A stretch of DNA of 40,471 nucleotides from a virus (lineage: Duplodnaviria; Heunggongvirae; Uroviricota; Caudoviricetes). Shown piece by piece: positions 7,005-34,670 of the stretch. Numbering within the stretch: the first letter of the stretch is position 1; each line of letters begins with the position of its first letter. The stretch covers positions 1 to 40,471 of IMG/VR virus record IMGVR_UViG_2565956717_000010. One strand, written 5' to 3'. Below the pieces are notes generated by a model that did not search any database, was not told the DNA's origin, and was given only the letters and a program-made list of their open reading frames with translations. Position numbers and translations under genes: made by a program.

Positions 7005-7095
7005 ATTTACATCGCACTCCTCTTGTGCCATAGTAATCGGGCACTGGCAAAATCCAGTGCCGGGATTGGTCTCCCGGATTACTAAGTGGCGCATA

Positions 7096-7117
7096 CCACG
7101 CCAGACGTGGTTTTTTT
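7096..7117 (+). terminator. Intrinsic terminator after small antirepressor-like gene
   Basis: Stem CCACG/CGTGG with 5-nt loop followed by T7. Confidence 0.5.
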
Positions 7118-7275
7118 ATGCGTATAGCACAGTCATGCCAGAATTATGGTGGGCTGAATGGGGGTCCGAAAGGACGCCGGTACCACTTAGGCCGGTAAGA
7201 CCAACTCCGTTCAGTTCACCACCATCTGATTGGTCTCAGCGGTGGTGATGTAATTCGCTAAGTGGAGACGCCATA

Positions 7276-26082: not shown

Positions 26083-26159
26083 GTGGCATTAGCTCAGTTG
26101 GACAGAGCAACCGCCTTCTAAGCGGTTGGTCGCAGGTTCGAATCCTGCATGCCACGCCA
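26083..26159 (+). tRNA. tRNA-Arg (anticodon UCU)
   Basis: 77 nt, hand-folded cloverleaf: acceptor GTGGCAT/ATGCCAC, D-stem GCTC/GAGC, anticodon stem ACCGC/GCGGT with loop CTTCTAA, T-arm GCAGG-TTCGAAT-CCTGC, discriminator G, encoded CCA. Acceptor stem differs from the host argU I remember. Confidence 0.85.
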
Positions 26160-30311: not shown

Positions 30312-30611
30312 TCACATCCCCCTGAAGCCGTTGCATTTACGTAAAAAATCGCAGATATAGCCCTTCATTTTTTCGTGCCAATCTCGATCATTCCCATTGC
30401 ACCAACCATCAGGTGGAGTCCAGTTTTCTATCAGAGCAGCCATTTTCTTTGCTTTCGCCGGAGTAGCTGTTGCGGTATCGCAGTAATGACGAGTGTCAAC
30501 CAACGTATCCATACCATCGATATCAAGTACGCAAAACCATGTGTGATTCGGCATTTCAACAGATGGTATTTGTTGCCCACGTCGACGTTTATCAATAAGA
30601 CATACAGTCAC
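30312..30611 (-). CDS. Hypothetical protein
   Basis: 99-aa ORF, overlapping stops/starts with neighbours. Confidence 0.4.
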   Translation of the reverse strand: MTVCLIDKRRRGQQIPSVEMPNHTWFCVLDIDGMDTLVDTRHYCDTATATPAKAKKMAALIENWTPPDGWCNGNDRDWHEKMKGYICDFLRKCNGFRGM

Positions 30612-31210
30612 TGGTTGCCTCCTTTGCGAAGCTGGGCAGCAAAGTCAACTAACCACTCAGTCATTTCAACCTTCCCTACCAGGTCTGAACCAGGGTGCAT
30701 ACAGCAATCACTCTGCGCCGCTTTGAAATCCTTATACTCATATTCTTGGGCCACCAGATTTTTTGCAGCTTCTATAGCAGCATCCACCCCCTGCGCCCGA
30801 ATTTCAGCCAGGAAAGCATCGGTGGCTGGCATATTTCCTGTTGCCTTCATGGCCTCCAAAATAACCAGAACGCCATCTCGCCCAACCACCTCAGCGATAA
30901 CCTCGGTGTTGTCGCCAACAACATCGCAGAATGCCTGAACTGCCTTACGAGCCAGCTCATTCTCCGCCGCCAGCACCGAAAACTTCTCGTGCGCCAACTT
31001 AACAGCCGAATCAGCCTGCTTAATTGACTCAGTCGCTCTCTGGTGGTCTTCGGCCAGCGCATTAGCACGCACCAGTTGCACTTCCAGTTGCGTTGCCAAA
31101 TCGCTGATCAGCTTTGCCACACTGCGCATATCAACGGCACCACATTCTGCTTTCAGTTCCGAAGCCATCTCATGCCCGGCGGAAACTAACCCTTTGATAT
31201 TACTTTCCAT
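30608..31210 (-). CDS. Hypothetical protein
   Basis: 200 aa, helical and acidic; no assignable motif. Confidence 0.45.
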   Translation of the reverse strand: MESNIKGLVSAGHEMASELKAECGAVDMRSVAKLISDLATQLEVQLVRANALAEDHQRATESIKQADSAVKLAHEKFSVLAAENELARKAVQAFCDVVGDNTEVIAEVVGRDGVLVILEAMKATGNMPATDAFLAEIRAQGVDAAIEAAKNLVAQEYEYKDFKAAQSDCCMHPGSDLVGKVEMTEWLVDFAAQLRKGGNQ

Positions 31211-31271
31211 CTTTACCCTCGCTTATCCACATAACTTATTGATTACATTGATAACTAAAAAGATCGTCGAT

Positions 31272-31619
31272 TCAGAACTCTTCGATGTTCCAGCCACCAC
31301 CAGCTTTCTTTGGTTTAACCGTTACCCCGATGATTCGGAACGGATACTGATCTGCGGCGACTTTGGTTTTCACCCTGGCGTCGTCGGTCCAGAATCCCCC
31401 TTTCACTTCGTGCAGTTCCATCTCTCCGGTGGCGAGCATCACAGCGAAATCTGGCGTATAGAACGTGTTGTCAGCTAACCGCAGCTTGATACCCTCAAAT
31501 CGATACCAGACGATTTCTCCTGCACGTTTACGCATCTCAAGGTGCTGACAATACGCAGATTCTGTTTTGTTCATCTGGCCTGTTTTGAGTCGACCAAGAG
31601 CCTGTATCTGTTTTCTCAT
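31272..31619 (-). CDS. Hypothetical nin-region protein
   Basis: 115 aa; AGGGG RBS overlapping palindrome site 5. Confidence 0.45.
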   Translation of the reverse strand: MRKQIQALGRLKTGQMNKTESAYCQHLEMRKRAGEIVWYRFEGIKLRLADNTFYTPDFAVMLATGEMELHEVKGGFWTDDARVKTKVAADQYPFRIIGVTVKPKKAGGGWNIEEF

Positions 31620-31736: not shown

Positions 31737-32522
31737 TTACTTGATAAATCCTGCCGCCTTTCCCCGCCTGTATTCCTCCATCAGCCACTGCGCCGGTGTT
31801 ATTCCCCCCAGGGTGGCGGCGTTAGGCATGCACCCGAAACTTCGCCCTGGCGGGTGGTAAACGTCTCTCCCTGTGTCCGGAGGTGTACTCATGGGCTCTG
31901 GCTTTGCCTGTATGCTGATCACCGGATCGGGTATCTGCTGTCCGGAAGCCACCTTTTTCGCCCAATCATCGAGCAGCCTGCGCGCGTGTTTCTCAACCTC
32001 AATCTCGCTAAGCTGGCGCTGATACATTGCACGGCGGGTATCACATACGACCCAGTACATAACCGGATGCCGCCACGGGAATCTTTCGGGACCACCAGGA
32101 TATAAACTTTTTTCCTTGCTGTACCGGTGAAACTCCGCCATCACATCGTCAATGGTGACGCCAAGAACCATCTTGCTGTCTTTACACCACTTGATAAATT
32201 GCCCTGGCGACGGCCAGAACGGAGATTCGCTGGCGCGGGCGTGGCGCATACCAGCAGAAACCTGTTCACGGGTTCGGATCCCACCTTCGGCAAACGCAGC
32301 AATCCACTGCTGTTTTGCAGCAACTTCCTGCTCTGGCGTCTTCAGGTTGGTTACCACTGCCGCCGGAAACAGTTGTTTCAGCTGTTTGAAAAGGGCATCA
32401 ACAAGCCTCTCTGCTGACATGTTCACCACGTTGTCATTGTTGGTGTACTGATGCTCATAACCTGACATGCGAGAAAGGGCTTCTCCGTCACGGTTTTGTA
32501 TCGCGGTAAAAACGTTGTTCAC
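31737..32522 (-). CDS. Replication protein P-like (helicase loader)
   Basis: EQVSAGMRHARASESPFWPSPGQFIKWCKDS closely parallels the lambda P segment I remember (EQVNAGMRVARRQNRPFLPSPGQFVAWCREE); GTG start with GGAGGA RBS overlaps O-like stop (GTGA). Confidence 0.7.
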   Translation of the reverse strand: MNNVFTAIQNRDGEALSRMSGYEHQYTNNDNVVNMSAERLVDALFKQLKQLFPAAVVTNLKTPEQEVAAKQQWIAAFAEGGIRTREQVSAGMRHARASESPFWPSPGQFIKWCKDSKMVLGVTIDDVMAEFHRYSKEKSLYPGGPERFPWRHPVMYWVVCDTRRAMYQRQLSEIEVEKHARRLLDDWAKKVASGQQIPDPVISIQAKPEPMSTPPDTGRDVYHPPGRSFGCMPNAATLGGITPAQWLMEEYRRGKAAGFIK

Positions 32523-33334
32523 AAGAAATCCTCCCATGCTTCAGGGCTGTTCCAGTGCGGAACGTTGTTATCAGGTAATGTTGATTGCTTCTGTCTGCTA
32601 ATCTGCAGCCGCCTTGCCAGCTTCTGCTCCCACTGTGCCTGATGGTATGCCTTACCCTCAGCCATCCAGTAAATTCTGAACTCTGCAAGTTCCTGTGCCG
32701 TTGGCAGACTGTCCAGGTAGATCCCCTGCAATGAGCTTTTCCGAAGAAAGTCATCTGATGGCTGCCATTGTTCATGCATGACAAATTTGCCTAATTGCCC
32801 TGGCCCACCAGGAGGAACAAAGTTATTCATCACGGCGTTGTTTGCGCCGGGGTCATGAGGCACAGAATCCCCGGTTTTTGTCCTGCTCTCCCTCTCTTGG
32901 TTAAATGACTGGTTATATGACTGGTTCTGGATCCCGTTTTTGGGATCATTCAACATCCCGTTTTTGGGATCATTCAACATCCCGTTTTTGGGTATATTCC
33001 CGCTTTCGGTAACATTACCGTTTTCGGGTTCATTGCCCCCCTCCCGGTTGCCTTTAATGTTCCCGTTTTTGGTTATATTAAGAGAGAAAACCCGCACTCT
33101 TTTTGTCGCTCCCTTTCTCTCTCCGGTATCTGAAATAAGCCCCATTTTCATGAGCGATATAAGCCCGGCCTGCACGGTTTTTTTATTCAGGCAAGTGTCT
33201 TTAACGAGGCGTTCTATGCTGGGGTAGCATAGGTTATATTCATCGGCTCTGTCAGCCATCGAGAGCAGTATGAGCTTTAATGACGAGCTACCTGGATCTG
33301 TCTCCCAGGCCCAATCTGTTGCATGTCTGCTCAT
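32519..33334 (-). CDS. Replication initiator O-like protein containing origin iterons
   Basis: N-terminal winged-helix-like domain; tandem 24-bp iterons inside the coding sequence; immediately upstream of the P-like gene. Confidence 0.7.
   Translation of the reverse strand: MSRHATDWAWETDPGSSSLKLILLSMADRADEYNLCYPSIERLVKDTCLNKKTVQAGLISLMKMGLISDTGERKGATKRVRVFSLNITKNGNIKGNREGGNEPENGNVTESGNIPKNGMLNDPKNGMLNDPKNGIQNQSYNQSFNQERESRTKTGDSVPHDPGANNAVMNNFVPPGGPGQLGKFVMHEQWQPSDDFLRKSSLQGIYLDSLPTAQELAEFRIYWMAEGKAYHQAQWEQKLARRLQISRQKQSTLPDNNVPHWNSPEAWEDFL
32931..33080. repeat. Origin-like iteron array inside O-like gene
   Basis: ATCCCGTTTTTGGGATCATTCAAC repeated perfectly twice (32931-32954, 32955-32978) then three degenerate copies; each unit has an internal TCCC..GGGA inverted repeat; flanked by TGACTGGTT x2 (32906-32926). 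Confidence 0.65.
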
Positions 33335-33645: not shown

Positions 33646-33679
33646 GAATAGATATGAAAAGACCGCCGGGTGGCGGTCT
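33646..33679 (-). terminator. tR1-like hairpin downstream of Cro-like gene
   Basis: 8-bp stem AGACCGCC/GGCGGTCT with GGGT loop (33660-33679); on the minus strand followed by a moderately U-rich tract. Confidence 0.35.
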
Positions 33680-33700
33680 ACAGAGGGTTGTGGCTGGATA

Positions 33701-33931
33701 TCATGAGTAGAAGAAGTATGCCAGTTCTGCTTTTGAGCGCAGCCATTGTCTTGTTTTACAGGCTTTAAAAAGCCCATTCATCAATACTTTACCTGGCATT
33801 TTGCGCTTACCTGTTAAGTGAGTCTGGATATAGTGACTCGTCGTTCCGGCTTCCTGTGCGAAGGCTTCACGCTCATCCGGAGTAAGTGCAAGCCAGTGCT
33901 TTTTGAAATCGAAATGTCCGTTATCGCTCAT
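33701..33931 (-). CDS. Cro-like small regulator (first gene of rightward-type operon)
   Basis: 76 aa, divergent from the repressor candidate; promoter spacer contains palindrome site 8a between TTGTTA (-35-like) and TATTAT (-10-like). Confidence 0.45.
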   Translation of the reverse strand: MSDNGHFDFKKHWLALTPDEREAFAQEAGTTSHYIQTHLTGKRKMPGKVLMNGLFKACKTRQWLRSKAELAYFFYS

Positions 33932-33967
33932 AGCTATTGCCTGATATTTATTTCAGATAATAAATAT

Positions 33968-33982
33968 TCACCCATAAGGTAA
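33968..33982. promoter_or_regulatory. Operator-like palindrome, imperfect (TCACC-N5-GGTAA; site 8a)
   Basis: In divergent immunity region; overlaps predicted Cro-like promoter spacer. Confidence 0.45.
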
Positions 33983-33998
33983 CAAAAATCAAGGATAG

Positions 33999-34085: not shown

Positions 34086-34670
34086 ATGAAAAGTATCCAG
34101 GACGTCCGCAGGCAAAATCTCAACGACTTGATCGACCGTGAATTCAATGGTGTTCAGACGCGGATGGCAGAAAAACTTGGAACTCAGGCAAATCTGGTAA
34201 ACCGCTGGGCTCTTGGCAAGAAGGTTATCGGCGACCAGGTTGCGCGAAAAATTGAAGCTGCCGCCAATAAACCCCGTAACTGGCTTGATATCGATCGCTC
34301 GCTTTCTCAGGAAGGTTTTCAGCCTGTCGGCCCAAGCGACATTGGCCAGCTGGCGGCTCACAACCTGGAACGCTGGATGAGCGAAAGCCGCGACCTTTCA
34401 ACACAGGGAAAACTTCACCGCGCATCCGGCGTCGCCCAGGTGACAATCAGCCGCCTGTTAAACAATGAGGTCAGCGTTTCCATTTCCACCCTGGAGAATG
34501 TTGCATCCGCATTCGGGCGTCACGGCTATGAATTACTGATTCACCCGCACGACCCTGCGACCATCAACTATGACCGCTCGCGCTACGCATTGTTACCCGA
34601 AACCGAGAAAGCAAAGATCGAAAGTTACATTGAATTTGTCATCAACCAGAACGAAAAAAACAAACAATAA
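34086..34670 (+). CDS. Double-HTH XRE-type regulator, candidate lysogeny repressor without autocleavage domain
   Basis: Two HTH-like segments (GVQTRMAEKLGTQANLVNRWALG and GVAQVTISRLLNNEVSVSISTLENVASAF); no S24 peptidase motifs; divergent from Cro-like gene across three palindromes; own terminator. Confidence 0.55.
   Translation: MKSIQDVRRQNLNDLIDREFNGVQTRMAEKLGTQANLVNRWALGKKVIGDQVARKIEAAANKPRNWLDIDRSLSQEGFQPVGPSDIGQLAAHNLERWMSESRDLSTQGKLHRASGVAQVTISRLLNNEVSVSISTLENVASAFGRHGYELLIHPHDPATINYDRSRYALLPETEKAKIESYIEFVINQNEKNKQ

Follow-up and report, generated by a model that had tools for sequence, protein, structure and literature searches.

The question raised by this locus is whether a run of short repeats inside a phage gene is maintained for the protein that it encodes or for the DNA itself. 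The repeats lie in a stretch of 40,471 bp from a virus of the Caudoviricetes (IMG/VR record IMGVR_UViG_2565956717_000010; the whole stretch is called the window below), on its minus strand and within the coding sequence of a predicted replication initiation protein. An earlier note on this DNA had described them as a lambda-style origin embedded in an O-like initiator gene. The analysis presented here leads to a similar view, and the array very probably represents the vegetative replication origin of a temperate E. coli phage of the phiV10/epsilon15 type (Uetakevirus), located inside its own initiator gene as in lambda. Gene order, the position of the array, the form of the sites, their conservation as DNA and their co-inheritance with the N-terminal domain (N-domain) of the initiator all agree with the proposed lambda-style arrangement.

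Architecture of the repeat array

Repeats in the window were located with Tandem Repeats Finder (TRF), a repeat search and a scan for a core motif. TRF reported a perfect 24-bp array (ATCCCGTTTTTGGGATCATTCAAC, positions 32931-32992, 2.6 copies, score 124) and, overlapping it, an array with an 18-bp period (32982-33034). The repeat search placed 24-nt copies at 32931, 32955, 32979, 33015 and 33060, with identities of 100, 100, 75, 71 and 67%. The two perfect and three degenerate copies of a 24-bp unit that the earlier note had listed were therefore all recovered at the positions given there, but its description of them as a tandem of five did not hold. Read in the frame of the gene on the coding (minus) strand, the array comprises seven units, six good and one degenerate, among them a copy at 32997-33012 that had been missed and a very degenerate one at 33035-33050. 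It is also not a pure 24-bp tandem, since the start-to-start spacings of the units are 25, 20, 18, 18, 24 and 24 nt (range 18-25 nt). The part common to all seven units is a 16-bp dyad, WTMCCRAAAACGGKAW, and it is this dyad (coding-strand sequences ATCCCAAAAACGGGAT, TTACCGAAAGCGGGAA and the like) that forms the functional unit rather than the 24-mer as a whole. The internal TCCC..GGGA inverted repeat noticed previously was seen in the sites as dyad arms around an A-tract, and the repeats are indeed translated, on the minus strand, as PKNGMLND peptide repeats. The core CCRAAAACGGK, with one mismatch or none, has seven matches in the entire window, six of which fall within the 140 bp from 32933 to 33072; this clustering is not due to chance. 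Within the initiator gene the array occupies nt 260-404, directly 3' of the winged helix-turn-helix (HTH) domain at amino acids 18-85.

The units were named S1 to S7 in the direction of the gene (Table 1). The core of S4 (32999-33009) carries an A-to-G change, CCGAAAGCGG, which replaces Asn by Ser and may weaken the site; relatives have ACCGAAAACGGG. The change occurs in none of nine fetched relatives, is seen in a single one of 50 equally long alleles and is the sole variant found in any site core. The degenerate unit S2 is probably a decayed site rather than a working one, since it has a G-rich centre and, unlike the invariant cores beside it, is hypervariable among close relatives: the window peptide reads GNREGGN at this point, and otherwise near-identical relatives have REGG, REGS, LEGC, REGD, REWS, REVG, LDGC and others. 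Terminator-like matches on the plus strand at 32941-32960 and 32965-32984 were rejected as by-products of adjacent iteron arms and T-runs, having weak stems and lying antisense to the gene.

The site variant ACCGAAAACGGT, found at 33015-33030 and in relatives, matches exactly the E2 consensus of papillomaviruses (ACCG-N4-CGGT), with an A-tract as its spacer. This likeness is a coincidence of sequence; it also illustrates that A-tract spacers favour dyad sites that are pre-bent.

Variation among close relatives

E. coli phages of the phiV10 type (Uetakevirus: EC.W1-9, phiv142-3, PAS61 and phiV10) share 97-99% identity with the window, and the segment carrying the array was found in 422 of 5,426 complete E. 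coli genomes. As the lengths of these matches range from 327 to 405 bp for a 351-bp query, the copy number of the sites varies among the genomes. Iteron number was also compared across relatives, as the earlier note had suggested: in the nine fetched relatives and 80 IMG/VR contigs, five to nine strong sites are present, with a mode of six, and copy number changes in steps of 18 nt (..ENGNVT..), 24 nt (PKNGMLND) or 12 nt (NQSY). One database protein contains eight 24-nt units. Two records of other phages also hold the module. PP488543.1 ('Escherichia phage BP9', 138 kb, classed as Vequintavirus) has a complete phiV10-type immunity and replication module at its end (131.9-138.3 kb), and the 115-kb record PP350014.1 ('phage PH444') likewise contains a phiV10-type module; both seem to be chimeric assemblies or to include contaminating prophage DNA, and not to have the module as a genuine part of the phage.

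Conservation of the sites as DNA

Codon usage was analyzed in 198 unique in-frame sites from many genera, with the same amino acids elsewhere in the same open reading frames (ORFs) as background. The first codon of the motif is NCC in 93% of the sites, compared with 20% C-ending codons in the background (Fisher p about 3e-103), and the amino acid that it encodes varies among P, T, S and A. The central amino acids differ non-conservatively (KN, KI, EN, NN, NF, VN and KY), with the DNA remaining CC-RWWWWY-GG throughout. The consensus site, AGTCCC AAAAAC GGGACT, is a palindrome. Its arm positions 6 and 19 are complementary in 122 of 185 sites where 87 were expected (z 6.9) and positions 5 and 20 in 106 of 185 where 58 were expected (z 8.4), and GC, CG and AT pairs are each represented; these z-scores, like the p-value of the codon test, are inflated by the non-independence of sites within a gene and across related loci. 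In 72 diverse homologous loci, the density of the strict core is 7.95 per kb in the repeat-encoded linker and 0.13 per kb elsewhere, a 61-fold difference.

For a population comparison, 50 unique alleles of equal length were used. Variation affects 1 of 60 positions in the site cores and 1 of 36 in the neighbouring 12-mers described below, compared with 13 of 90 in the non-core parts of the array, 20 of 255 in the N-domain and 27 of 273 in the C-terminal domain (C-domain). No third codon position varies in the cores (0 of 18), in comparison with 35 of 176 in the two domains. These contrasts are only modestly significant (Fisher p 0.005-0.05). Taken together, the codon, covariation and population data indicate that the DNA of the sites is under selection as DNA, the direction being unambiguous despite the inflated statistics, and that selection acts on the DNA and not on the peptide; a constraint on the peptide cannot yield a palindrome. 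The peptide encoded by the repeats (..ENGNVT.., PKNGMLND, NQSY) is mainly a tolerated flexible linker that is tolerant in length, and its length varies freely among relatives.

Association of the array with the N-domain

A homologue search retrieved near-identical E. coli proteins only, and tblastn yielded relatives that share the N-domain alone at 35-52% identity, namely Edwardsiella GF-2, Vibrio H20 and its relatives, Acinetobacter AP22 and its relatives, and PPompW. All of them carry an array of the same kind in the same place, mostly with a 24-nt period (GF-2, three copies of AATGATCCCAAAATTGGGATTTTG; H20, five copies of CCGAAAACGGTACTTTGAATAGGC; AP22, CCCAAAAACGGA, CCCATATACGGG and CCCAAATTTGGG), and their neighbouring genes and C-domains differ. 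In AP22 the initiator is followed by a DnaB-type helicase gene, and residues 137-280 of the GF-2 protein are 62% identical to residues 156-299 of lambda O, beginning just after the origin in both. A scan with one genome per species added 80 loci (N-domain identity 40-87%), among them 72 with full-length products, and the wider set comprised more than 550 viral loci. An HTH_36 domain is present in all 72 full-length products. Their C-domains match DnaT in seven cases, Phg_2220_C (the lambda type) in five and DnaA_N in two, the remainder being devoid of a Pfam match in the C-terminal part. Through the N-domain, the array is joined to at least four types of C-domain, one of them of lambda-O type. 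Homologous arrays were detected in prophages of Acinetobacter, Vibrio, Pseudoalteromonas, Providencia, Edwardsiella and others.

The reverse situation is found in the Uetakeviruses SPN1S and Tyrion, which have the DnaT-like C-domain in common with the window and possess other N-domains. The array is absent from their initiator genes, and a search of these genes for other iteron arrays gave weak two-copy repeats only. Because the array accompanies the N-domain across different C-domains and is absent where only the C-domain is common, it is, on this distribution, a property of the N-domain module, as is classical for origin specificity in lambdoid phages. In some distant homologues, at loci L148, L161 (downstream of the last in-frame site) and L106, forward sites are mixed with sites of reverse orientation (CCCGTTTTT) within one gene, which suggests that the polarity of the sites is not strictly fixed in the wider family.

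A candidate unwinding region

Three tandem 12-mers adjoin the array on its promoter-distal side and were recovered by TRF at 32898-32926 (period 12, 2.4 copies). On the plus strand they appear as copies of TGACTGGTT, a sequence that had been thought to flank the iterons; both copies in question, 32906-32914 and 32918-32926, lie on the gene-downstream side, within the 12-bp tandem. When the 30-mers of the gene are ranked by stability, the block of 12-mers (32928-32893) comes second from the bottom (z 2.0), and the two lowest-ranking 30-mers bracket the array. In GF-2 the least stable segment is the 12/13-mer block; in lambda that rank belongs to the AT-rich region, which occupies the corresponding place (z 3.3). 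Further downstream, the coding strand of the window has a purine-rich run with a possible extra half-site, CAAAAACCGG, at 32871-32880. The purine fraction downstream of the array is 0.64 compared with 0.58 for the gene, and at the same relative place in lambda it is 0.63 compared with 0.57.

Throughout the family, a 12/13-nt unit, AGAAYCWNYCAW, is present two or three times directly 3' of the last site, and in many Vibrio, Pseudoalteromonas and Acinetobacter loci these copies are followed by an A-rich tract. Among unique loci, the spacing of the units is 13 then 12 nt in ten, 12 then 13 nt in six and 12 then 12 nt in four. In H20, AGAACCAGTCAT is read as QNQS in one copy and as EPVI in the next. 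As the same unit is read in different frames, the 12/13-mers are a repeat at the level of DNA. The 12-mers of the window are a likely unwinding element.

Proposed mode of action

If the array acts as an origin, transcription from the cro-side early promoter would express the initiator and the P-like helicase loader encoded next to it. Dimers of the N-domain would bind each dyad site, occupying the six good ones, and the A-tract-containing array would form a bent, O-some-like complex. The adjacent promoter-distal segment of 12-mers and purine-rich DNA would then melt, probably aided by transcription of the operon as in lambda. The clustered DnaT-like C-domains could bind and stabilise the exposed strand, serve to dock the P-like protein, or do both, and the P-like protein would deliver host DnaB.

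A more specific version of this scheme is possible but doubtful, in which two mechanisms are combined in one initiator. The N-domain would bind iterons as lambda O does and the C-domain would form a filament of the DnaT type on single-stranded DNA (ssDNA). Iteron-bound N-domains would concentrate the C-domains at the 12/13-mers, and the filament on one melted strand would mark the site for loading by P and DnaB, so that the 12/13-mers would be a sequence-specific single-strand element and not a generic AT-rich region. Phage genes of this kind might also be the source of the DnaT C-domain architecture and of the chromosomal DopC/DopE pair. Filament-marked loading of this sort would resemble the DnaA/DnaT-like logic recently proposed for replication restart.

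Weighing the origin against other explanations

Several observations weigh against the array being a lambda-style origin. A literature search found no binding or replication experiment for this initiator family, and we infer binding, unwinding and origin activity of the array alike from sequence comparison. To this can be added the inflated codon and covariation statistics and the modest population contrasts. No AT block of the lambda kind (80% AT) was found by the array; AT content reaches at most 70% (z 2.0-2.6) in the window compared with 80% (z 3.3) in lambda, and the 30-mer of lowest stability in the gene (z 2.6) is located at the upstream, not the downstream, edge of the array. The initiator itself is classified in Pfam by HTH_36, unlike lambda O, which belongs to Phage_rep_O (PF04492). 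The latter family matches lambda O at 5.7e-36 and has no match in the window protein, where only HTH_36 and DnaT were found. Of the earlier description of an O-like initiator, the layout of an array in its own initiator gene therefore stands, and membership of the Pfam lambda-O family does not. Pairwise comparison of the window protein with lambda O revealed no similarity (BLASTP E 0.075), and hhalign of a five-sequence N-domain alignment against the lambda O N-terminus gave a non-significant probability of 7.6%, though HTH and wing were aligned. Finally, a large Acinetobacter subgroup (L117-L163) has few strict-core sites and shows perfectly palindromic variants such as CCCAACGTTGGG; its GAATCT 12/13-mers are followed by long A-rich tracts (TCTAAAAATAAAAA), and the subgroup may constitute a distinct specificity class.

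Three other explanations of the repeats were considered. It is highly unlikely that they are a low-complexity, slippage-prone linker rich in Asn, Gly, Pro and Lys, with a preferred peptide being conserved and no function in the DNA. Such a linker would fit the free shifts in copy number by 18, 24 or 12 nt among relatives that are more than 90% identical (five to about 11 sites) and the recurrence of the peptide motif xPKNGx across the family, but it does not account for a synonymous position that is fixed (93% C compared with 20%) while N, for example, is replaced by I, F or Y and P by T, S or A. Neither does it account for the palindromic covariation, which has no coding explanation, for the adjacent 12/13-mer being repeated in two frames in relatives (QNQS and EPVI) or for site cores that vary less than the synonymous sites of the flanking domains. 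The dyads could instead be genuine binding sites that serve regulation, be it autoregulation, a transcriptional roadblock in the early operon, copy-number control, handcuffing or the binding of another dimeric regulator of phage or host, with the true origin elsewhere. We regard this as improbable. Dyads of 16 bp are typical operators, and a strong AT-rich block beside them is missing. A perfect DnaA box (TTATCCACA, 31223-31231, plus strand) is situated 1.7 kb from the iterons, in the gap between the ORFs 30608-31210 and 31272-31619. A single consensus DnaA box in the window is, however, within chance expectation, and the consensus scan found none near the array. The initiator N-domain is, moreover, the only constant partner of the array across differing repressors, neighbours and C-domains, and both arrangement and motif parallel the experimentally defined origin of lambda.

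A third explanation concerns the 12/13-mers and part of the conservation of the array, which might reflect module-junction sequences that promote recombination between N- and C-modules and not an unwinding element. The junction between the modules does lie just downstream of the 12/13-mers, at least four C-domain types are joined there and the identity between GF-2 and lambda begins right after the origin. This explanation is quite improbable in view of a conservation that spans genera with unalignable flanking DNA, of tandem repeats at a fixed spacing of 12-13 nt, which recombination would not need, and of the strong constraint on the 12-mers in the population (1 of 36 positions variable). 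The replication origin continues to be the preferred reading of the array.

The initiator, its neighbours and the early operon

The positions of the features discussed are collected in Table 1. In the initiator, Pfam recognizes HTH_36 at amino acids 18-67 (1.8e-10), with the wing extending to about residue 85, and DnaT at amino acids 184-252 (1.1e-15); the linker encoded by the repeats spans amino acids 87-147. The protein falls into PHROG 1032 ('replication initiation protein', 1.3e-108), and its C-domain matches the DnaT structures 9zbt, 6aep, 4ou6 and 2ru8 (E about 1e-21). An AlphaFold2 model from the single initiator sequence was uninformative (mean predicted local distance difference test score 38). 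Translation of the helicase loader could start at ATG 32537 or at GTG 32522, the latter within a GTGA that gives a 4-nt overlap with the initiator stop, as in the annotation of relatives. Either start suggests translational coupling with the initiator, as for lambda O and P.

Table 1. Features of the initiator locus, numbered from the first letter of the window
Feature	Position	Strand	Basis
Iteron S1, TAACCAAAAACGGGAA	33060-33075	-	Repeat search and core scan; core invariant in 50 alleles
Degenerate unit S2, CAACCGGGAGGGGGGC	33035-33050	-	CC...GG kept, centre G-rich
Iteron S3, AACCCGAAAACGGTAA	33015-33030	-	Repeat search, core scan and alleles
Iteron S4, TTACCGAAAGCGGGAA	32997-33012	-	Core scan, one mismatch
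Iteron S5, TACCCAAAAACGGGAT	32979-32994	-	TRF, repeat search and core scan
Iteron S6, ATCCCAAAAACGGGAT, 24-bp unit	32955-32970	-	TRF, repeat search and core scan
Iteron S7, ATCCCAAAAACGGGAT, 24-bp unit, last site	32931-32946	-	TRF, repeat search and core scan
Three tandem 12-mers, AGAACCAGTCAT / ATAACCAGTCAT / TTAACCAAGAGA	32893-32928	-	TRF, stability and conservation
Purine-rich run, GAGAGGGAGAGCAGGACAAAAACCGGGGA (coding strand)	32868-32896	-	Purine fraction and repeat family
Initiator gene, 271 amino acids	32519-33334	-	ORF, Pfam and PHROG
Lambda-P-type helicase-loader gene	31737-32537	-	Pfam Phage_lambda_P, 1.5e-56; PHROG 109 'P-like helicase loader'
Upstream early-operon context	33660-33985	-	Consensus matches only
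Divergent repressor gene, two HTH motifs	34086-34670	+	Pfam/PHROG and comparison with phiV10

Upstream of the initiator, consensus matches were obtained for a promoter-like site (33985-33957), a cro-like ORF (33931-33701) and a terminator-like hairpin (33679-33660), and the phiV10 record has a terminator annotated at the same relative place as this hairpin. The order of repressor (plus strand), divergent cro-like ORF, terminator-like site, small ORF, initiator and Phage_lambda_P homologue is the same in phiV10, and judged by this order the context is that of a lambda-like early-right operon. The GC skew has its cumulative minimum at about 33.1-33.4 kb, where gene orientation switches, and this minimum is therefore uninformative on the origin.

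Two further features were recorded elsewhere in the window. A tRNA-Arg gene with the anticodon TCT is located at 26083-26159 (plus strand) inside the phage-like region (ARAGORN and Rfam). Two Rfam families scored above the gathering threshold side by side on the plus strand, isrK, an Hfq-binding small RNA, at 7041-7117 (67.7 bits) and C4 antisense RNA at 7142-7226 (61.2 bits); the pair suggests an antisense immunity or antirepressor control region of the P1/P7 type.

Annotation and significance

Database entries for this initiator are named 'primosomal protein', 'primosomal protein I', 'DnaT', 'DnaT-like' or 'HTH domain protein', and no origin is annotated in them; the phiV10 record likewise has no origin feature. 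The names 'primosomal protein I' and 'DnaT' are misleading, because the DnaT N-domain is absent and the protein scores 85 bits against a cut-off of 201 with the NCBIfam DnaT equivalog model NF002770, of which only profile positions 86-169 are matched. A literature search for phiV10/epsilon15 iterons and for the site sequence found no description, the matches to ACCGAAAACGGT being papillomavirus E2 papers. That an initiator gene can contain the origin is a textbook principle dating from lambda. The kind of element is ordinary; the initiator family differs from lambda O and is poorly annotated, and the details are undescribed. Four points seem not to have been described: the consensus site shared across the family, the 12/13-mers that recur independently of reading frame, the range of C-domain partners and the connection with DopC/DopE.

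The correct label for the gene would be an initiator with an internal origin of the consensus AGTCCC-AAAAAC-GGGACT together with 12/13-mers. Such an annotation provides a handle for replicon typing of prophages and would aid the prediction of cross-inhibition by ectopic iterons and the construction of phage-derived replicons. The family also offers natural domain swaps for studying how DnaT-like, lambda-type and DnaA_N C-modules couple one origin-binding module to helicase loading.

Comparison with known replication systems

The closest parallel is lambda, in which iterons (ATCCCTCAAAACGAGGGA and variants, four copies, spacing 20-24) occupy nt 349-433 of the O gene, starting two codons after the Phage_rep_O domain (amino acids 22-115). 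In both phages the origin is placed inside the initiator gene directly after a winged-helix N-domain, and the array is built from dyads whose TCCC...GGGA arms enclose an A-tract and which have the same polarity with respect to the gene. On the promoter-distal side, each has a segment that is rich in purines and less stable, although in the window it is only mildly AT-rich. Both also share a P homologue as the next gene and a cro-side operon (PMC7466680, PMC5043065), and in both the N-module with the origin can be exchanged against C-modules. The iterons of lambda are bound by O dimers and have an intrinsic bend (PMC5043065, PMC7466680), and strand asymmetry has been described for the lambda origin (PMC5043065). 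The window differs in the size of its sites (16 bp compared with 18-19 bp), in their number (6-7 compared with 4) and in a spacing of 18-25 bp, and it has a much weaker AT block, the extra class of 12/13-mers and a DnaT-like in place of a lambda-type C-domain. The N-domains of lambda O and of the window initiator both match PHROG 678 and PHROG 345 at overlapping positions, and a distant relationship of the two proteins is suggested through these shared profiles only. HHpred has placed HTH_36 in the lambda O N-terminus (Brezellec et al. 2017, PMC5509034).

Gene 18 of P22 and gene 18 of phage L encode related initiators, each with its own iterons within the coding region (PMC8022706). Their repeat sequences differ from those of the window (for example TGTCCAACGGA in L), and their partner is the DnaB-type helicase gp12 and not a P-type loader. 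Iteron plasmids (F RepE, R6K pi, RK2 TrfA) have direct, non-palindromic repeats of 19-22 bp that are bound by monomers, helix-phased and placed outside the rep gene, whereas the window sites are dyad-symmetric, show compensated arm changes and lie inside the gene, and are thus not of the Rep_3/RepE type. The winged-helix initiators of iteron plasmids also bind one strand of the DNA unwinding element (DUE). What these plasmids share with the window is an array of initiator sites beside a repeat-containing unwinding element, such as DUE 13-mers (PMC5043065).

The C-domain leads to two further systems. DopC and DopE, a domesticated lambda O/P-like pair of Cellvibrionales and Oceanospirillales, show the same combination of HTH_36 and a DnaT C-motif, with a P-family protein encoded next (PMC5509034). 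The authors found no sequences resembling iterons in DopC, which is resident on the chromosome (PMC5509034), whereas the window gene is a phage form with iterons. In E. coli DnaT (primosomal protein I), whose N-domain has no counterpart in the window initiator, the solved C-domain is an ssDNA-binding domain that forms filaments on ssDNA, and the C-terminal 85 residues of the window initiator are about 50% identical to it. In the preprimosome of replication restart, a filament of this DnaT domain on ssDNA marks the site of helicase loading (PMC13377028).

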